Shown: positions 3,873 to 27,200 of the stretch, piece by piece
Layout: each line of letters opens with the position of its first letter
Position numbering within the stretch: position 1 is the stretch's first letter
Program-made: the position numbers and the translations under genes
Notes under the pieces: model-generated
Seen by the model: the letters and a program-made list of their open reading frames with translations, nothing else
The model's database searches: none
What the model was told of the DNA's origin: nothing
IMG/VR virus record: IMGVR_UViG_3300036792_000267
Location: 64,001 to 128,000 of that record
Strand: one strand, 5' to 3'
DNA from: a virus
DNA: 64,000 bases

Positions 3873-4214
3873 GTGAGCGAATGGACGACCCGCGGCGAAG
3901 GCGAGTGGGCGGTGCGCGAGGAGCCTGCACCGGAAGAGGAAAGCAGCCCCCAGGCCGGCGCTGGCCCGGAGACTGCTGACATTGACGAGGACGCGGCCCC
4001 TGACGCTGACGGGTTACGAGGCGAAGGCGCGCGGGTCCTGGTTAACGAGCAGCCAGAACGTGGTTTCGCTGGCGGTTACCTCGGCTGGCTTGCTTCCGAT
4101 CCCTGTGCCGTTAGGGCCGCCGCCGTTTGCGAAGGACTTGTCCACTTGCCGTTCTCCTGCCGTAGAAATTTGCACGGTTCGCTGCAACGGAACTTATCCT
4201 GCACAGAACGCTAG
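3873..4214 (+). CDS. acidic hypothetical protein with in-frame TTA codons (3' end uncertain, possibly recoded)
   Basis: CCGAT-N9-GTG start; TTA in frame at 4014 and 4194; codon usage atypical after 4014. Confidence 0.5.
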   Translation: MSEWTTRGEGEWAVREEPAPEEESSPQAGAGPETADIDEDAAPDADGLRGEGARVLVNEQPERGFAGGYLGWLASDPCAVRAAAVCEGLVHLPFSCRRNLHGSLQRNLSCTER

Positions 4215-4233: not shown

Positions 4234-4458
4234 ATGATCGCCAAGCTGAACGGGGACGTGCCGGGGGAAATCGCCGAGATCGCCGGGCATCTGCAGGCAG
4301 CCGGGCTGGATGACGCGGCGGCCAGGGTGCGCGAGGCCGCGGAGCTGGCCGGCACTGACCCCGGGCAGGCGCAGGACATCCTGCGGGAAGCCTCTGACGC
4401 CCTCATGGCGCAGGTGCCCGCCTACAGCCACCGGCGCAAGGTCCCTTCATCCGATTAG
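4234..4458 (+). CDS. hypothetical protein
   Basis: ATG 4234 after GAGGA; high-GC3 part of the 3982..4458 ORF. Confidence 0.55.
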   Translation: MIAKLNGDVPGEIAEIAGHLQAAGLDDAAARVREAAELAGTDPGQAQDILREASDALMAQVPAYSHRRKVPSSD

Positions 4459-4464
4459 GGGTGC

Positions 4465-5583
4465 ATGGCCGATGACCTGCGCTACATCGTGCCGGCCCCC
4501 GGTGGCGACACCTACGAGCCGGTCGCCGACGTCCCGGTAGCCCTCGCCCGTTCCCGCCGGGTCCAGGGGAAGCTGTTCGAGAAGCACATTCTCAACAAGG
4601 GCCCGCTGCTGCACCCGAAAACCGGCAAGGTCATCAACGTCGATGACGCGTTCGTCGCGACGATGCAGGCCAACTTCACCAAGGGCTACTGCGACATCGT
4701 GCAGCTCCCGCTCGCCAACGACCAGAACGAGCACGTGGAGGGCCCGGCCGCCAACCTGGGCGAGGTGGTCGGCATCAAGGAGCGCGGTGGCAAGGTCTAC
4801 GCGCTGGTAGACGCCCGCCAGGACGCCGACAAGTTCGGCAAGACCTACCTGGGCGCGAGCGCGTTCCTGTCGACCAACTACACCGACTCGGCCACCGGCA
4901 ACAAGGTGGGGCCGACGCTGCTTCACGTGGCGGTCACCAACCGGCCTTACGTCACCGGACTGGACGACTACAAGGAAGTCCTGGCCGCGTCAGCCGATAG
5001 CACGGGAGAAGTCGTCGTACTCACAGCCGTGCCGGAGGAAACCGTGCCGATGACCAGGGAAGAGCTGCTTGCCGCTCTGAAGAACGAGCACGGCATCGAC
5101 GTTGCCGCCCTGCAGGCGTCCGCTGCCGCGCCGCCCGCGCCGGACACCGCCGGGCTGACCGCCTCGGTGGTCCAGGCGCTGAAGGACGGCGGGTACGTGT
5201 CGCTGACCGTCGACCCGGGCCAGGTGAGCCTGGGCGACGTGACCGCCGCGGTGGTGGAGCTGGCCGCCGACAACAAGGGCCTGCGCGGCGAGGTGGACGA
5301 GCTGAAGCTGGCTGCCGCCACGACCGAGGTGGACAGCTACATCGGTACCGGGCGGCTGCTCCCGAAGGCGAAGAACGTGGCCATCCAGATGGCGCTGTCC
5401 AACCGCGACGGGCTGGACGCCATCCTCGCCCCCGCTGACCGCCCGTACGTGAAGCTCGACCAGCAGGTGGGGCTGTCCGGCCCGGACGGCGAGCAGCGGC
5501 AGGAGCAGGACATCGACGCCGAGGTGATGCGCCTGGCGGCGCAGCACAAGGAGTTCTTCACGCCGGACGGCACCCGGAACTAG
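4465..5583 (+). CDS. capsid maturation protease / scaffold (Mu gpI-like)
   Basis: YLGASAF...GPTLLHVAVTNRPYVTGL motif; coiled-coil C-terminus; position before decoration/capsid. Confidence 0.8.
   Translation: MADDLRYIVPAPGGDTYEPVADVPVALARSRRVQGKLFEKHILNKGPLLHPKTGKVINVDDAFVATMQANFTKGYCDIVQLPLANDQNEHVEGPAANLGEVVGIKERGGKVYALVDARQDADKFGKTYLGASAFLSTNYTDSATGNKVGPTLLHVAVTNRPYVTGLDDYKEVLAASADSTGEVVVLTAVPEETVPMTREELLAALKNEHGIDVAALQASAAAPPAPDTAGLTASVVQALKDGGYVSLTVDPGQVSLGDVTAAVVELAADNKGLRGEVDELKLAAATTEVDSYIGTGRLLPKAKNVAIQMALSNRDGLDAILAPADRPYVKLDQQVGLSGPDGEQRQEQDIDAEVMRLAAQHKEFFTPDGTRN
5044..5583 (+). CDS. probable nested scaffolding protein
   Basis: in-frame GTG 5044 with GGAGG at 5034-5038 and internal CCGAT at 4994. 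Confidence 0.5.
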   Translation: MPMTREELLAALKNEHGIDVAALQASAAAPPAPDTAGLTASVVQALKDGGYVSLTVDPGQVSLGDVTAAVVELAADNKGLRGEVDELKLAAATTEVDSYIGTGRLLPKAKNVAIQMALSNRDGLDAILAPADRPYVKLDQQVGLSGPDGEQRQEQDIDAEVMRLAAQHKEFFTPDGTRN

Positions 5584-5613: not shown

Positions 5614-6303
5614 ATGCCATCCAACGACTCGTTCGAGTTTGACTACCCGCCGGGTTACGTCAAGCCGACGCACGAGTACGGCCAGGGGTTCGGCGACGAG
5701 TTCCATGCTGAGGCGGTACAGGAACTCCTACTCAGCTATGCCGGGTTCACCCAGCGCGGTGTCACCCTGGCAGCCGGGCAGGGCGTACTGCCGACGGGCA
5801 CGATCATCGCCCGGCACACCGCCTCGGGGAAGTACTTCTCCTACCAGGCGGGCGCGACTGACGGGCGTCAGGTCCCGGTCGGCGTGCTGCGCGACGGGCG
5901 CGACACCGGCGGCCCCGGCGCGGCGAGCCTGTCGGCCTACAACTCCGGCACCAACGGGGTGAACCCGGACGCCATCACGCTGGTCGGCGGCGCGGTCATC
6001 TTCCCGGCGAGCCCGGGAGGCAAGACGGCCACTGACGCGCTCGGCAACATGGTCATCCGCGGCATCCTCAACGGCAACGTGGTCTCCGGCACCGACACGA
6101 CCAACATCATCAACGGCAGCGGGCTGGGCTCCGGCGCCGGCCAGGCGATGGTGCTGCTCGGCGCGCGCTACGTGCCCTACGGCGGCGCGGTCTCCGGCGC
6201 TTCCCTGGGTGCCCCGTTCCCTGGCGGCCCGATGGACGGCGTTCCCCCGTCGAACGCGGGCGTGGTGCCGACCGGCGTCGGGACCAACGCCTTCATCTTC
6301 TAG
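5614..6303 (+). CDS. head decoration protein (lambda gpD-like)
   Basis: GVTLAAGQGVLPTGTII...SGKY...DGRQVPVGVL motif; precedes capsid. Confidence 0.75.
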   Translation: MPSNDSFEFDYPPGYVKPTHEYGQGFGDEFHAEAVQELLLSYAGFTQRGVTLAAGQGVLPTGTIIARHTASGKYFSYQAGATDGRQVPVGVLRDGRDTGGPGAASLSAYNSGTNGVNPDAITLVGGAVIFPASPGGKTATDALGNMVIRGILNGNVVSGTDTTNIINGSGLGSGAGQAMVLLGARYVPYGGAVSGASLGAPFPGGPMDGVPPSNAGVVPTGVGTNAFIF

Positions 6304-6721: not shown

Positions 6722-6764
6722 CCAGGCCCCCGGGACGCCCGTCCGCTGGGGGCCTGGTCCTTTT
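6722..6764 (+). terminator. intrinsic terminator between convergent genes
   Basis: CCAGGCCCCC / GGGGGCCTGG stem then TTTT. Confidence 0.6.
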
Positions 6765-7470
6765 AGGCGGCGGCCTCTAGCGCCATCCGGGCCTGGTGCC
6801 GCTCTATGTAGTCGGCTGCAGCCCGTAGCAAGTCGGGGTCGTCGTTGAACATGCCGAGAGCGACGTTGAGGTTCCGGCGGATTAGCCCGCGTAGGCATTT
6901 CCCGCAGCTCCGGTCACCGGGACAGCAACTGCGGTCGTGATCGACGGCGAGGGGGTAAACCTTGCCGGTGCGCTTGCTGACCGAGGTCTCAGGTCGGCCG
7001 CTGATCTCGCAGACGCCGGCCTGCTCAGCTAGTTTTTGGTCGTACCAGCCTGGCGGAAGGCTGTAGACACGATCTCGGTTCTTGGCCCCTTCGCCGTTTG
7101 CGCTGAGGCAGTCCCAGCATTTCCGGCGGTTCTGGTGAGTGGGGTTCACTCTGCAGGTGGCGCAGAGTTTCCCTTGCGCCCGGCAAGCTCCGCACTCGTT
7201 GCGCTCCTTGTCGCCGGGGCTCTTATCTCGCCCGCAGGTAACGCACTTGATTCGGCAGGCCGGGCAACGTTGAGCCTTTGCTCGGTTGTTGCCGCGGTAG
7301 GGCTGGCCGCATGATTCGCAGGGGCGTTCAGCTGTGGCGTATCCGCTGCGCTTACGGACTTTGGCGGCGGCGCACAGGGAGCAGTACGAGCTGAGGGCTC
7401 CTGATGGATAGCGGTGCCGTGGCCGCGTTTTGCAGGTCGGGCAGATGGGTTCGTTTCCGGAGACATTCAC
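6763..7470 (-). CDS. endonuclease VII-like homing endonuclease with zinc-ribbon repeats
   Basis: many CxxC; QAGVCEISG...LAVDHDRSCC...CLRGLI...N.ALG.FNDDPDLLRAAADYI. Confidence 0.85.
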   Translation of the reverse strand: MNVSGNEPICPTCKTRPRHRYPSGALSSYCSLCAAAKVRKRSGYATAERPCESCGQPYRGNNRAKAQRCPACRIKCVTCGRDKSPGDKERNECGACRAQGKLCATCRVNPTHQNRRKCWDCLSANGEGAKNRDRVYSLPPGWYDQKLAEQAGVCEISGRPETSVSKRTGKVYPLAVDHDRSCCPGDRSCGKCLRGLIRRNLNVALGMFNDDPDLLRAAADYIERHQARMALEAAA

Positions 7471-7646
7471 ATTCTCTACTACGTCTGGCCGACTTACCGA
7501 TTAGACGGGGCAAGCGCTCAGGCGTTAGGCCAGCCAGGTGGCTCCTCTACGAGGGAGCGGCGCAGGCCGGGCTCGGAACTTCGGGTCGCTGTGGAACTTA
7601 ACAGCACCTGCCGGCAATGGTCGGCTGACCGGAGGAGGTGAGCCCG

Positions 7647-8883
7647 ATCCCTGACATCAGTCTTTTGGAGCCCGTAGTGCTCCGAGGGGTCGTTTTAAGT
7701 TGAGAAGTTTGTAACGCCAGAAACGTTGCTGCTGCTCAACCGCCTGGACCAGACCCCGTGGCCCTTCCCGTCCGCCACCTGGGACGTGGTGAAGGGATCG
7801 AGAGCGGTCGCCAAGCCGAACGTGCCCAACTCTGAGGCGCACATCATCTCCCGGCTCGGCAGGAGCCAGGAAAGCGCGAGCTTCATCTACTTGCGCGAGA
7901 AGAAGGTCTTTGAGCCGACCACGCTGCACTGGCTGCGGACGCCGGGCGAGATCGCCCGCATCAACGCCGAGCGCGCGGTGCTGAGGGAGATCAACGACCT
8001 CAACCAGCGGTTCGACAACTTCGCCGAGTGGAGCGCCTGGCAAGCGCTGGGCGGCGCGATCCAGTACAACTACGGCGACGTCCAGGCCCTGGTGGACTAC
8101 AAGTTCCCGCGCAGCCACTTCGTCACCCCGGCCACGCCGTGGGTCACTAACACCGCGCTCGGCTACTACACCACCGGCGGCGCCACCGCGGCCGGCGCGG
8201 GAACCAACAGCGGCCAGCCGGGCCAGCCGACCACCCTGGGCCAGGCCCAGACCTCGCTGACCGCGGCCGGCGGCACCATCACCTACGCGACCCCGGTGTC
8301 GATCATCGAAGACGTGCGGTCGTGGAAGCGGCTGCTGGCCGTGCACGGCCGGGTGCCGGCGAAGGAAGTTTTCGCCACCAGCGTCACCATGGCCGGCCTG
8401 ATGGAAGCGTGGGTGTCCGCCACGCAGGCGTCTACCGTGTCGATCCCGGCGACCATGATGAGCGACCGGATGAAGGACGAATTTTACTCGACCGGCATCA
8501 TGACCGGCTTCATGGGCCTCGTCTGGACCACGGTGGAGCAGGTCTTCGAGTCCGACCTCGGCAACCTGACCTTCTTCGTGCCGGATGGCATGATCTACCT
8601 GGGCAACTACACCGACCAGCGGCCAGTGGAGGTCCTGGTCGGCCCGACTGCCGACGACGAGGCCCCCGAAGGTTTTACCGGAAAATATGCCAAGACCTGG
8701 AAGGAGAAGGACCCGTCCGCTCGTCAGTACCTGTTGGAGTGGCACATGCTCCCGATCATCACCAGGCCTGAGCAGATGCTGGTAGCCACCAACGTCATCT
8801 CTGCGGGCGGCAGCGTCACCGTCCCGGCCGGCTACTACAACGGCGGGGCCGGCACTGGCGGAAGCAACGCGCCGGTCGACTAG
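7647..8883 (+). CDS. major capsid protein (lambda gpE-like), interrupted by a 7-nt coding gap at 7695-7701
   Basis: GGAGGTG RBS then (ATC)PDISLLEPVVLRGVV, resuming in +1 frame EKFVTPETLLLLNRL; C-terminal KTWKEKDPSARQYLLEWHMLP typical of gpE-type capsids; alternative start GTG 7638. Confidence 0.85.
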
Positions 8884-10791: not shown

Positions 10792-11481
10792 ATGGGGCGT
10801 GTGCCGACGAGGTTCGTTGAGGTAGGCCAGCGGTTTGGCCGGGGTACGGTCATCGACTCGGACGTGCGAGTTCCTTATGAGGCCCCGTCCGGATACAGCA
10901 AGAACTGGCGGTGCGCTCGGCTCCGGTGCGATTGTGGAACCGAGTACGTGGCCCAGATGGGCGCATTGTTCCGGGGTAAGCGCATCTCGTGCGGGTGCGC
11001 TCGGCGCAAGCAGCGCGACCCGGAGGCCGTGGCTCGACAACGCGCCACGCTTGAAGCACGGGGCAAGGTCACTGAGCATCCGCTCTACAGCACCTGGGCC
11101 AACATGATGCGGCGCTGCTACAAGGAGGCCAACGGCCAGTACCCCAACTACGGTGCGCGGGGCATCAAGGTTCATGAGTCGTGGCATGACAGTCGGACTT
11201 TCGTAGGCGACATCGATCGTCTGCTTGGCCCGCGCCCGAAGGGTTGCACGCTTGACCGGAAGGACAACGACGGCAACTACGAGCCGGGCAACGTGCAGTG
11301 GAGTACCGGCCCCGCGCAAAGCCGCAACACGCGCCGGGCGCTGACAGGCTCGGTCCGCTACCGGGGCAAGGGCCGGTGGGGGTTCCGCTTGAGTGCAGGC
11401 GGCTACTTTTCTGAGGCGGAAGCTTTGGCTGCCCAACGGCTAGCTATTGAGGCGCTGACCGAAGCCGGAGTGCTCCGTTAG
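10792..11481 (+). CDS. HNH homing endonuclease
   Basis: RCDCG...SCGC...YSTWANMMRRC...YGARGI...TLDRKDNDGNYEPGNVQW; TGcTATTGT 6 nt before ATG (leaderless). Confidence 0.9.
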   Translation: MGRVPTRFVEVGQRFGRGTVIDSDVRVPYEAPSGYSKNWRCARLRCDCGTEYVAQMGALFRGKRISCGCARRKQRDPEAVARQRATLEARGKVTEHPLYSTWANMMRRCYKEANGQYPNYGARGIKVHESWHDSRTFVGDIDRLLGPRPKGCTLDRKDNDGNYEPGNVQWSTGPAQSRNTRRALTGSVRYRGKGRWGFRLSAGGYFSEAEALAAQRLAIEALTEAGVLR

Positions 11482-22493: not shown

Positions 22494-23174
22494 ATGCCGG
22501 ATAACAGTGAACTGGATCGTATCGATCCACAGCCGGAGACGTGCAAGCTGTCCACCGGCTTCGAGGTCGACATCGTGCGGATGCGCACCCGCCAGTTCTT
22601 CCGCTTGCTGCGCGTGCTGACCCACGGGGCAGGCCCCGCGCTCACCCAGTCCGGGCTCGACTTCGCGGCCGGAGGCGAGGAGTTCACCCAGAAGCTGCTC
22701 ATGCTCGTGGTGATGTCCATCCCCGACGCCGAGCAGGAGGCCATCGGCTTCCTGGCGTCAATGTGCCGGCCGTCCGGCATCACGGACAAGGCTGCCTCCC
22801 AGCTGACCAAGCAGGAAAACGAGGCCAACCAGGCGCTGTGGACCCGGTTCAACGAGGAGCTGCACAACCCTGACCTGGAGGACACCCTCGACCTGGTTGA
22901 GATTATCGTCCGGCAGGAGTCGCCTGAGCTGCAGGCCCTGGGGAAAAAACTCCAGCGGACGTTCAAGATCTTCCAGGCGACGGGCCAGGACAGGGAGGCC
23001 CCGGAGCCGGAGGCGAGCCCGCAGGAGATCAACTCGCCGGAGCGTTCGCCTCAGCTTTCGACGTCCTCAGCCACGAGTACGGGTGGACCGACGAGTACGT
23101 CCTCGACCTCCCGGTCTGCCGGCTCCGGCAGTGCCTCGAAGCGGCGGGCGCACGCCGGAAGCGAGAGCAGCTAA
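22494..23174 (+). CDS. tail assembly chaperone (gpG-like)
   Basis: between tube and tape measure; S/T-rich tail overlapping a -1 frame ORF. Confidence 0.7.
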   Translation: MPDNSELDRIDPQPETCKLSTGFEVDIVRMRTRQFFRLLRVLTHGAGPALTQSGLDFAAGGEEFTQKLLMLVVMSIPDAEQEAIGFLASMCRPSGITDKAASQLTKQENEANQALWTRFNEELHNPDLEDTLDLVEIIVRQESPELQALGKKLQRTFKIFQATGQDREAPEPEASPQEINSPERSPQLSTSSATSTGGPTSTSSTSRSAGSGSASKRRAHAGSESS

Positions 23175-23506: not shown

Positions 23507-23528
23507 GGGCGTGGGCGTAGTAGTCAGC

Positions 23529-24230
23529 ATGGTACGTAATTCATCAATGCTGTCCGACGAGTCTTGGCTGCGCGAGCGCTACCTCGTTGACGAACTGTCC
23601 ACCACCGCCATTGCGGCGCTGGCCAACTGCTCTCAGGCCACGGTGTGCAACCGGCTGGCCGGGTACGGAATCCCGCGGCGTCCCCGAGGTCGCTTTACGC
23701 AGAGCCGGATCGACGCTGACGGCCGAGAGTGCACGGCTTGCGGTGACTACAAAGCGTGGAACGAGTACTCGCCTAGCAAGCCGACGCAGCCAGGCGGCCG
23801 GTACTCCGTCTGCAAGGTCTGCTGGAACGGCACGCGCGGTGGCGGCCCCGGTAACCGGAATGGCGAGTACCGTGCGTGGGCACTCAAGCGCATGGGCATC
23901 ACGCAAGCCGAGTACGACTGGCTGCTAGCCCTGCAGAAGGGCGTGTGCGCTCTCCATGGTGGCCCGGAGACTAGGAAGGGTGCGCTGTACCTTTCCGTCG
24001 ACCACGACCACAACTGCTGTCCGCCGGTAAAGGTCGGGCAGACCCGGTGCTGCAAGAAGTGCATCCGCGGCCTGCTCTGCCACGACTGCAACCACATGGT
24101 CGGCCTAGCTGAGAAGCTAGGTCAGGCGTGGCGGTTCCCTGATTACCTGGGCTCGCGCCCCTTCATGGGGAAGGGGGTGGTGCTCATGACGCCTTATTCT
24201 GAGCCTCTGAGCCACAGTTGTGGCTTATGA
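23529..24230 (+). CDS. endonuclease VII-like homing endonuclease with N-terminal HTH
   Basis: WLRERYL...IA...GIPRR; QKGVCALHG...LSVDHDH.CC...CIRGLLCHDCN. Confidence 0.85.
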   Translation: MVRNSSMLSDESWLRERYLVDELSTTAIAALANCSQATVCNRLAGYGIPRRPRGRFTQSRIDADGRECTACGDYKAWNEYSPSKPTQPGGRYSVCKVCWNGTRGGGPGNRNGEYRAWALKRMGITQAEYDWLLALQKGVCALHGGPETRKGALYLSVDHDHNCCPPVKVGQTRCCKKCIRGLLCHDCNHMVGLAEKLGQAWRFPDYLGSRPFMGKGVVLMTPYSEPLSHSCGL

Positions 24231-27200
24231 GGGACCAGAATACTGGTTAGATCGCTTTGGTATGTAATTTACAAGGCGATCGGTTTAACATTCAGGTGAC
24301 TTCGGCGACCTGATGCGGGACGCGGCGCAGGCTAAGGCCGCGCTGCAGGGGATGGGCGATGCGGCCAAGGCGGAGACCGCGGCCGAGGTGGCGGGCGCGA
24401 CCCAGGCCGCCGCCGCGCGCGGCAAGGGCATCACGTCCATCCAGCAGGAGACGCAGGCCCTTAACCAGCTCGCCAACGCCGCCAAGCAGACCAACGTCCA
24501 GCTGCTCTACGGCGGCCGGAATGACATGACCCAGCACCTGAGCGACCTGGCTCAGGAGCTGAACTACACCACCTTGCTCAACCGGCAGAAGTGGCTCGGC
24601 TTCTCCTCCGTCCAGCAGGCCATGTCGTACCGCCAGCAGATGTATAACCTGGCGCTGCTGGAGAACAAAGCGCACTTCGCCGGCTACCTGACCGCGGACC
24701 AGTACCTGGGCTTCCTGCAGCGCGAGACCGCCCAGACCGCGGCGCTGTCGGCCGCCATCCGCGACCGCAGCGCGGCCATCGGCGCCGAGACCCAGATGCT
24801 GCTCGCGCACGCCAACGCGCTGCAGGGCACCCACGCGACGGCAGGCAGCCTGGGCGAGGGCCTGAGCACGGTCAACGCCTACAACGTGGCGCTGGTCGGG
24901 CTGCCGGACACGGTGGTCACCAAGGCCGTCCTTGATGACAGCCAGGCGATGTCGCAGCTGGCTGCCTACCGCGCGGCGCTGACCTCGCTTCCCAACGCGG
25001 AGACCACCGACATCACCTCGGTTGCCACCCGGCTGGGCGGCGTCCCGCTGACGGGCGCGCGCCAGGCGGTGCCGGTCAGCGTCCGCCCCGAGATCGACTA
25101 CGCCGCGATCAACAAGATGCTGTCCCAGGCGGTCGCCGGGGCGCACCCGGAGGCGCTGCGCGCGCCGCTGGCCATCACCGGGTCGGGAGCGGCGGATTCC
25201 GCGCTGTCGGCCACGGCGGATTCCGCGCTGTCGGCCACGGCGGACGACGCCGGCGCGCTGTCGGCGTCCATGTCCGAGCTGAGCGACAAGGCGGCCATTT
25301 CCGCCGAGGCAATCAGCAAGTTCCAGGACTCCCTCGCGCTGGCCGCGGTCGACGCCCGCGCGCTGGAGCAGGGACTCGGGCGCCTGTCGGCCGCCGAGCA
25401 GCTGCTGTCTGAGGTTAACGCCCAGTTCGTGCCGCAGAAAGGCCGCAAGAAGGCGGCGGCTGCCGACCCGGCGCAGAACCTCGCTGACCTGTACGGGCTG
25501 CAGGACGTCGCCGGCGCGCTGCGCGAGGGCGCGATCTCCGACGCGCCGCGCGGCTACCCGCTGTCCGCCCCGGGCATGAAGATCATCCCGCCGACGCAGG
25601 CGGGAGAAGAAGACCTGTGGTCGGGGCTGTCCAAGTACATGCAGGGCGGCAAGGCCGCGGGGACTGCCACCGAGAAGGTTGCCGTCGAGGGCGGCCAGGA
25701 GGCCGAGGCGACCCTCGACAAGATCGCCGTCCAGATGGAGTGGCTGGACCATGAGGATGCCAAGCCGAAGCTAGAGCTGGAAGGCGGCCAGGAGGCGCTA
25801 GACGACGCCTACCACCTGGACGGCGTACTCGTCGGCCTGACTTACGAGCGCGCGGAGCCGGAAGTCGCCCTGCAAGGCGGAGCCGAGGCGCTGGGAGAAG
25901 TCACCGCCCTGGACGAGGGGCTGCACGAGATCCCGCACGAGACTGACACCGTCCTGGTGGTCGAGTCCTCCGGGGCCTCCAGCGAGGTCCGCGATTACAG
26001 CCGCGACATTGAGGACATCGAGCGTGAGGTGGGCACTCGCGCCGACTTCGAGGACACCGAGGCGGAGAGCGGGCTGTCGCGCTGGCTGACCGCCCTGGCT
26101 GCGGCGGTCCAGCACAAGTACGACTTCTACGCCAGCTTCAACGACGACGCGGCCAAGGCCGAGCTGGCCGGGTGGATCAGCGAGCTTGAGGCGGCACGCG
26201 CCGAGGAGAACCGCATCACCGCCGGCATGGGCGGTGCCTCCGGTGGCGGTGGCGGCGGAGGGCCGCCTGTTCCCCCTGCTGCCGCCGGCGACGCGCCCAA
26301 CCCGGATGACCGGGCGATGTGGGAGGCCGTCGCCGCCGAGATGGCCAAGGTAGACGCCCTCTTCAAGAACACCGGCCGTGACGCCGCTGCCGCCGGGGCC
26401 GCCGCGTCCAAGGCCGGCCGGGACGGCGCGCAGGCGGTCACCTCGATGGTGCTGCCGCTGACCAACGGCGCGCGCGGCTGGTTCGGCCTGCTCACCCAGG
26501 TCAACCTGTTCGGCGGCCTGCTGCCCGGCATCCTGGGCCACACCACGGCCCTGCACTTCGTCCTTGACGCGATCATCGAGACGATCGCCATCCTGCTGCC
26601 GGCCATCGTCACCATGGCAGCCGGGCTGACCGCGTTCGGCATCGCTGGCTACGACGCCGGCAAGGCGGTCTACGAGCGCCTGACGGCGATTCACACCGCG
26701 GCCGACGCCACCGGCCAGTCCATCCCGCCGCTGACCGGGAACCTGGAGAAGCTGCACGACACGGTGCGCCCGCAGGTCTGGCAGTTGTATGGCGACGCCA
26801 TCACCGTCGCGGGGGCGAAGTCCGGGCTCTTCAACCAGCTGGCCATCCAGACCGGGAACGTGGTCGACCGGCTGGCCGCGCGGCTGACGGTGGACCTGGT
26901 GCAGGGTGGCCAGGGGCTGAAGACGTTCCTGTCGGTCGGCGCGGAGAACCTGGCCAAGCTCGGCACCATCTTCGACAACCTCGGCAAGGCCCTGATGGCG
27001 TTCATCAAGGTCACCGAGGACACCCACATTGACCAGATTTTCCTGGCCATCTTCGTGGCGCTGTCCCAGTTCCTGGTGCTCATCACCAAGCTGCCCACCC
27101 CGTTGCTCGCCGCCGTGGTCGCGCTGCACGCGTTCTGGCTGTGGGGCGGCCTGCTGGCCACCGTGGTCCTGCAGATGCTCAACCCGCTGCGCTCGCTGGC

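Follow-up and report, generated by a model that had tools for sequence, protein, structure and literature searches.

The stretch of DNA analysed here, referred to as the window, comprises 64,000 nucleotides (nt), bases 64001-128000 of the 151,377-bp virus record IMGVR_UViG_3300036792_000267, a genome with direct terminal repeats, a CheckV completeness of 100% and a GC content of 68%, and at positions 7647-8883 it carries a capsid gene whose reading frame is broken close to its beginning. The open reading frame (ORF) 7726-8883, which is open back to 7699, matches the Pfam family Phage_cap_E (PF03864; E 9.6e-23, 81 bits against a cut-off of 22.9), with the whole match falling inside it; on the record the protein is given as 385 residues starting at TTG 7726, the start chosen by the gene caller (P0002). 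Upstream lie a Mu-like protease/scaffold gene (4465-5583) and then a decoration gene of the lambda D type (HDPD; 5614-6303). Because the Pfam match comes with this gene order, and because the homologue in Microbacterium phage Magritte is annotated as a major capsid protein, the product is, judging from its sequence, a major capsid protein of the lambda gpE type.

The gene appears to begin well upstream of TTG 7726. Its first exon (7647-7694, plus strand) consists of ATC 7647 and 15 further codons, (M)PDISLLEPVVLRGVV, and ends on GTT 7692-94; there follow the 7 nt predicted to be bypassed, TTAAGTT (7695-7701, plus strand), made up of TTA 7695-97, a spacer A 7698 and GTT 7699-701; and the capsid body (7702-8883, plus strand) continues from GAG 7702 with 393 codons and a stop. 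The stretch 7683-7710 reads CGA GGG GTC GTT TTA AGT TGA G AAG TTT, so that the two frames are split at 7692-7704 by the 7-nt block, as GTT-TTAAGTT-GAG. The upstream frame, (V)SPIPDISLLEPVVLRGVVLS, is ended by TGA 7701-03, two codons past TTA, and TAA 7696-98 closes the body frame, which downstream of it runs as VEKFVTPETLLLLNRL... as far as the stop at 8881-83. Translation from ATC 7647 would hence give 18 residues, or 16 + 393 = 409 residues if the block were passed over, and omitting TTAAGTT yields ...LRGVV-EKFVTPET....

We put at roughly three in four the probability that the capsid gene is read by programmed translational bypassing over TTAAGTT. Translation would initiate at ATC 7647, guided by a very strong Shine-Dalgarno site, and proceed for 16 codons, leaving peptidyl-tRNA-Val on GUU 7692-94 in the P site and UUA, which none of the phage's 37 tRNAs decodes, in the A site. 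During the ensuing stall the peptidyl-tRNA-Val (anticodon GAC, wobble-paired to GUU) would release the message, the mRNA would slide by 7 nt, the tRNA would re-pair at GUU 7699-701, and decoding would restart at GAG 7702 to give the normal 409-residue protein with the junction ...LRGVV-EKF...; ribosomes decoding UUA instead would meet the stop two codons on and release the 18-residue peptide. Both the hop and its efficiency are what we infer from sequence. A simple slip at the stall site would be unworkable, because TAA 7696-98 closes the +1 frame, and transcriptional slippage on the TTTT run was rejected, since the loss of one T gives GTT TAA and the gain of two gives TTT TAA, both stops.

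A sequence-only reading of the window had proposed this hop, with take-off at GTT 7692-94, TTA 7695-97, landing at GTT 7699-701 and resumption at GAG 7702-04, with products of 409 residues with the hop and 18 without it, and with no ribosome-binding site before TTG 7726. On re-reading, every one of these codons and coordinates proved correct, both lengths were reproduced, and no GGAGG-like site was found before 7726; nor is there any ATG, GTG or TTG between 7699 and TTG 7726.

The codon at which the ribosome would stall is the rarest sense codon in our tally, which counted 20 TTA in 44,563 codons (0.45 per 1000) on a rough gene set and with several of the 20 doubtful. ARAGORN finds 37 phage tRNAs, including tRNA-Val-GAC and decoders of rare A/T-rich codons (Ile-UAU, Lys-UUU, Arg-UCU), and no tRNA-Leu-UAA among them. 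When all 775 TTA triplets on both strands of the whole genome were scanned, the capsid site was the only arrangement of the form X-TTA-N-X that joins two coding frames, which makes it more than a chance occurrence. The high GC content, the Microbacterium phage among the relatives and a DUF397 gene on the contig of the closest relative (L198) together point to a host in the Actinomycetota. The DUF397 family is largely confined to Streptomyces-like actinomycetes; the window's own genome has no match to it, but as the control genomes gave none either, this negative carries no information.

The conserved junction and its parallel interruptions

What does the junction look like where nothing interrupts it? 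Relatives, over 60 phages in all, were collected from 79 IMG/VR loci and from further contigs reached via protein hits, and they provided 47 distinct insert-free alleles, in all of which, as in Magritte, ...LRGVV EKF... is contiguous, just as the sequence-only reading had predicted for the hopped product. Magritte, a distant relative and the only one found in the phage GenBank collection (hence the sole cultured relative there), has a capsid protein 48% identical to that of the window, beginning MPEISLLQPTVLRGVVERFTAPET, and the closest relative, L198, lacks the 7 nt in a gene whose product is 93% identical. The N-termini of full-length relatives read (M/V/I)PDISLLEPVVLRGVVEKFVTPET and are constant in length, EKF standing at residue 17; LRGVVEKF is invariant in length, none of the 120 proteins listed having extra residues between GVV and EKF; the first 24 residues are almost invariant across more than 100 homologues; and once TTAAGTT is removed, the N-terminus encoded by the window is identical to that of P0005 over 45 residues. 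The homologues therefore start upstream of LLLNRLDQ, the point near which they were expected to begin if there were no hop, and the insert, whose absence from reads had been the other concern, is kept in contigs of three independent soil runs (three samples from three studies). These Logan contigs cover at least 7605-7756 and show neither a difference nor a gap; that of run X1, which is probably the source run, has a depth of 151, the other two runs being X2 and X3. Their agreement excludes an assembly error, and no insert-free form is listed among the contigs of the three runs, although contigs cannot exclude rare variants.

The flanks of the block have changed in a manner characteristic of translated sequence. 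Around the junction, three pairs of sister alleles with and without an insert differ by 58 synonymous and 1 non-synonymous changes; over codons 1-30 the counts are 19 and 0 for the window and L198, 18 and 0 for L052 and L051, and 21 and 1 for L004 and L009. Within exon 1 the window and L198 differ by 10 synonymous and 0 non-synonymous changes, and the codons at 7702-7725, which lie after the TAA and before TTG 7726 as the first possible start, likewise differ only synonymously. Both flanks are thus, on the pattern of substitutions, under purifying selection and translated in the frames that the hop would join, and the synonymous-only change, including that at 7702-7725, argues against internal initiation as well as against a dead gene. 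Synonymous divergence peaks in the first 30 codons, where third positions are enriched in A/T, and falls to about 3 per 15 codons further in; in the window the divergent patch of some 30 codons lies at 7653-7740 (plus strand), as delimited by comparison of insert with insert-free sisters. A second patch of A/T-ending codons occurs near the 3' end of the capsid gene (8670-8790), and contigs of relatives have G or C at many of its A/T third positions.

The interruption itself has occurred in parallel. There are nine distinct TTA-led blocks, that of the window and eight in relatives, 7 or 10 nt long and placed at three positions within 6 nt; each of them shifts the frame by +1, has TTA first and is preceded by a codon ending in T. 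Three are 7 nt long, all with take-off at GTT: TTAAGTT with resumption at GAG in the window, TTAGGTC with resumption at GAA in L004, and TTAGGCC with resumption at GAG in L211. At the same position, blocks of 10 nt stand between GTT and GAG in L052/L054 (TTACCGGGTT), in L080 and L203 (TTAGCGGGTC) and in L212 (TTAGCGGGTT). One codon earlier, L214 has TTAACGGGTC (10 nt) between GGC GTT and GTG GAG, and two codons earlier, after a take-off GGT, L006 has TTAACCCCGC (10 nt, resuming at GTC GTC) and L204 has TTACCCCCGC (10 nt, resuming at GTC GTG); the gene call of L204 carries a junk N-terminus. All seven V-type alleles take off from GTT, and a cognate landing codon, GTT or GTC, both read by tRNA-Val-GAC, is present in six of the nine. 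Insert alleles are scattered over the capsid tree, each beside insert-free sisters. Pattern scans for further alleles returned only unrelated AT-rich phages when viral contigs were searched loosely, only the known alleles when they were searched more strictly, and a single unrelated chance match in one scan of metagenome contigs.

Insert alleles also share features outside the block. The Shine-Dalgarno site of the window, GGAGGAGGTGA (7631-7641, plus strand), stands at an 8-nt spacing from ATC 7647; all the insert alleles inspected here have AGGAGGTG at ideal spacing (GGGAGGTG in L203), and the AGGAGGTG 8-mer occurs in no insert-free allele. This fits compensation for an inefficient hop, and it fits co-transfer with a mobile cassette (see below), the two being indistinguishable. 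A purine-rich, Shine-Dalgarno-like GAGGGG is found at 7684-89, 2 nt before the take-off GTT, and comparable purine runs are found in most insert alleles, while L006 (218-263) and L204 (about 1180-1225) share a GGGG(U)/(A)CCCC hairpin with UUA in its loop, one pair of which is lost in L204. ATC 7647 aligns codon for codon with the ATG, GTG, TTG, ATT or ATC starts of relatives. ATT or ATC capsid starts are seen in the window (7647-7649) and in L003, L004, L010, L012, L015, L044, L049, L198, L206, L210 and L211, and they lead gene callers to choose wrong starts, downstream or upstream. The capsid leader at 7480-7630 (CCGATTAGAC...GGCGGCGCAGGCCGGGCTCGG...CGGGTCGCTG) is conserved at the nucleotide level in L004, L006, L070, L080, L198, L203 and L204, with and without the insert, and is conceivably a late promoter or else a structured 5' untranslated region.

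The neighbouring nuclease gene and the origin of the insert

Directly upstream of the capsid gene and divergent to it lies a gene of the Endonuclease VII family (6763-7470, minus strand; 235 residues; Pfam PF02945, E 1.8e-7), free-standing and homing-endonuclease-like, whose start is 225 nt from the insert. It is intact (match G000 70802-71071 in the genome search, an open frame with no stops) and is one of three Endonuclease VII genes in the genome. Orthologues with 65-84% identity occupy the same place in L203, L204, L080, L212 and L214, and L052 retains a 42-residue remnant; L198 has no Endonuclease VII gene there and carries a small PadR-like gene instead. Counting distinct alleles with enough upstream sequence, this type-A nuclease gene is found upstream of six of nine insert alleles and one of 47 insert-free alleles (Fisher p 1.7e-5), figures that come from a partly biased sample of alleles related by descent. 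An Endonuclease VII gene also lies upstream on the P0098 contig, and in many relatives one lies directly 3' of the capsid gene.

The same junction is interrupted in yet another way. In L044 (2737-3000, 264 nt) and L205 (about 905-1216, 272 nt) longer inserts, placed within the second Val codon, match the Rfam group I intron model RF00028 over its full length (E 1e-7, below the gathering score), and in both relatives the capsid gene is closely followed by Endonuclease VII genes. Conserved capsid sequence has thus been interrupted independently at least four times within about 7 nt. It is about an even bet that the insert, the recoded flanks and the strong ribosome-binding site move as one unit with the Endonuclease VII homing gene next to them; the nuclease's target within the conserved capsid sequence would then be broken up by the insert, much as the MobA target in T4 gene 60 is by its 50-nt gap. 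The clustering of the interruptions, the nuclease link and the recoded flanks are what make the locus resemble the T4 mobA/gene 60 cassette.

It is conceivable, with a probability that we judge to be slightly below even, that in high-GC actinophages the TTA mini-inserts are mobile 'translational introns' and make up a general class. The conserved ...GTN GTN GAG AAG TT... of naive phages would be cut by a free-standing Endonuclease VII, and conversion would install the nuclease gene together with a patch of 30 recoded codons, a ribosome-binding site of maximal strength and a TTA-led gap of 7-10 nt. Such a gap would destroy the target and yet be skipped by the ribosome, and a group I intron at the site could take its place or be replaced by it.

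No other TTA site joining two coding frames was found genome-wide, TTA sites near gene ends being ordinary overlapping starts, and two further proposals of the sequence-only reading fared less well than the capsid hop. Its tape-measure hop, GGT-TTA-...-GGT at 24282-24297, was rejected: it falls in an AT-rich segment with no coding signal, ahead of a contiguous ORF of 2758 residues from ATG 24313. The site lies between that ATG and a second Endonuclease VII family gene (23511-24230, plus strand; Pfam E 6e-12), which follows the tail-chaperone genes, has TTA as its last sense codon and is succeeded by AT-rich non-coding sequence (24231-24312). The five TTA triplets at 4011-4209, taken as chained hops, stand in a stretch that has no clear codon periodicity, precedes a small gene starting near 4235 and looks non-coding. 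Recoding of a familiar kind is indicated in the tail assembly chaperone gene, whose slippery run CTGGGGAAAAAACTC at 22940-22955 represents the customary G/GT-type site for a programmed -1 frameshift. An ORF of 229 residues at 10792-11481 (plus strand), with a lower GC content at third positions (0.77), no Pfam match and homologues scattered in L017, L018, L046 and L047, is possibly another mobile nuclease-like gene.

Alternatives to the hop

Insert-free homologues, parallel TTA-led alleles and the soil-run contigs all support the hop first suggested by the sequence-only reading, but could the same locus be accounted for in other ways? One candidate is a prfB-like +1 frameshift at the end of the block, in which UUA and AGU would be decoded and the ribosome, with UGA 7701-03 in its A site, would shift to GAG and produce GVV-LS-EKF. 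In the window, L052 and L212 the TGA that ends the zero frame does coincide with the frame junction, and GAGGGG, 2 nt before GTT, would perhaps serve as a helper. However, no stop stands at that point in L004, L080, L203, L211 and L214, so no +1 shift site is common to all alleles; tRNA-Ser on AGU would be unable to re-pair with GUU, the only open position; the rarest codon would have to be decoded efficiently; no natural homologue has the extra residues; and the frameshift offers no reason why six of the nine alleles should possess a GTY landing triplet. TTA-led blocks of 7 or 10 nt with a mostly cognate landing are, as sequences, a better fit to the hop, and we regard the frameshift as improbable. 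The need for any recoding would vanish if the capsid simply started at TTG 7726, without its first 24 residues, and the upstream frame gave the 18-residue peptide or nothing. Gene callers did pick this codon (P0002), and the ORF behind it is open and contains the entire Pfam match; yet the ribosome-binding site precedes ATC 7647 and not 7726, the 16 upstream codons and the 8 codons at 7702-7725 change only synonymously relative to L198, and the 24 residues that would be dispensed with are nearly invariant in more than 100 homologues, which renders such a start quite improbable. Least probable of all is a broken capsid gene, be it that of a defective phage, a lethal mutation rescued by co-infecting relatives or an artefact of assembly. 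The genome does come from a metagenome and has no isolate, and contigs cannot reveal minor insert-free variants, but the identical sequence recurs in three runs, one of them at depth 151, the genome is complete with terminal repeats, and eight alleles of the same design exist in different lineages, where the flanks are intact and the N-terminal peptide is fully preserved; random frameshifts, moreover, would not all start with TTA after a T-ending codon.

A different kind of alternative grants the hop and assigns it a regulatory purpose: following the proposal made for phiHau3, capsid synthesis would be tied to charged host tRNA-Leu-UAA (bldA in Streptomyces), so that virions would be made only in vegetative cells. 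The anatomy of the site equals that of the phiHau3 terminase sites, the phage supplies tRNAs for other rare A/T-rich codons and none for UUA, and the contig of L198 bears the DUF397 gene. Set against this are the size of the phage with its 37-tRNA cluster, the absence of the insert from most relatives including the closest, the tracking of the insert with a neighbouring homing nuclease gene instead of with phylogeny, and the group I intron that occupies the same site in other relatives. A regulatory role seems to us doubtful, although it deserves some credence, and it would be compatible with a role in immunity to the nuclease.

Several observations weigh against the hop or against its proposed origin. 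Every virion requires hundreds of copies of the capsid protein, known short hungry-codon hops are inefficient, and the view of the strong ribosome-binding site as compensation for a poor yield is only suggestive. Scarcity of tRNA-Leu-UAA in the host is an assumption. RNA folds of seven insert alleles have no structure in common, and no RNA run is listed as containing the stretch. The landing codon is non-cognate in three of the nine alleles, take-off at GTT being paired with landing at GCC in L211 and take-off at GGT with landing at CGC in L006 and L204 (two of three positions match), so that either landing tolerates loose pairing or these alleles work differently or are defective. The link to the nuclease has exceptions on both sides, L070 having the type-A gene and no insert, and L004 and L211 the insert and no nuclease gene. 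Finally, the statistics do not come from independent samples, since the alleles share descent and some of them came to light through truncated gene calls.

Relation to known recoding and homing systems

In the literature consulted, natural bypassing is documented in T4 gene 60 and its relatives, in the byps of yeast mitochondria and, with partial evidence, in three Streptomyces phage terminases. These genes, which encode the large terminase, contain UUA-led blocks, two of 10 nt in phiHau3 and 7-nt ones in the prophages StrepC.1 and S. catenulae (Smith 2013; Antonov 2023, PMC10732093), and such blocks were met in three of 100 terminase genes surveyed (PMC10732093). A full-length product was obtained in Streptomyces, and a junction peptide was detected by mass spectrometry in E. 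coli with UAA replacing UUA (PMC10732093). The capsid gene has in common with these terminases a TTA-led block of 7 or 10 nt that disrupts the frame of an essential virion-assembly gene in a high-GC actinophage, flanks that are adjacent in block-free relatives, a stop soon after TTA, matching take-off and landing codons, and a junction too conserved to admit extra residues. It differs in being a major capsid gene, with far larger amounts of product needed, and in belonging to an unrelated lineage of about 150 kb with large tRNA sets; its site is only 16 codons from the start and comes in nine natural forms that occupy three neighbouring positions, there is a link between the inserts and a nearby Endonuclease VII homing gene, and in relatives the site is taken by a group I intron. 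In that literature we found no capsid case and no link between UUA gaps and homing nucleases, and the sequence evidence indicates that the capsid gene adds to a kind of bypass so far published for a few Streptomyces phage terminases.

In T4 gene 60 a 50-nt bypass lies in the MobA homing cassette, and the gap guards its carrier from its own nuclease (Huang 1988; Bonocora 2011; 10.1101/2022.08.31.505936). Here, too, take-off and landing codons match and a gap with divergent flanks sits in a conserved essential gene beside a homing endonuclease gene, with a patchy distribution among relatives. In contrast to gene 60, the gap measures 7-10 nt and not 50, the presumed trigger is a rare sense codon in place of a UAG stop codon, a take-off hairpin and a signal in the nascent peptide, take-off would occur from GTT or GGT where gene 60 uses GGA, and the nascent chain would be only 16 residues long; the nuclease belongs to the Endonuclease VII family, which has no sequence relation to MobA, and the immunity it would call for is suggested by analogy. 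Hungry-codon bypass in E. coli reporters (Weiss 1987; Gallant & Lindsley 1998; Lindsley 2005; cited in PMC10732093) offers another parallel, with starvation for the A-site tRNA, a slide to a cognate codon a few nt downstream and no special signals. Those reporters are synthetic and hop at a low level, whereas here the hop would be needed for every capsid subunit of a natural phage. Zeng et al. are said to have described in 2009, for cyanophage psbA, a collaborative homing in which a free-standing nuclease cuts the uninterrupted site and an insertion at the site confers immunity. The group I introns at the capsid junction of L044 and L205, with Endonuclease VII genes nearby, are reminiscent of that arrangement; unlike there, the interruption in the window would be removed at translation and not by RNA splicing.

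What would follow for these phages? A capsid gene dependent on a UUA hop would, if real, demonstrate that hops of this type are able to sustain a high output, and under the scenario of mobile translational introns UUA hopping would be efficient enough to supply the most abundant protein of the virion. Nine gaps at three positions, with cognate and near-cognate landings, insert-free sisters and an intron at the site, amount to a natural allelic series from which rules of take-off and landing could be derived. Gene callers truncate or mis-start genes of this sort, and the annotation of high-GC phages consequently needs a rule for TTA-led gaps and for ATT/ATC starts. If the link to the homing nuclease is true, gaps of the phiHau3 type would share a selfish-DNA origin with the gap of T4, and their existence could be explained with no appeal to regulation.

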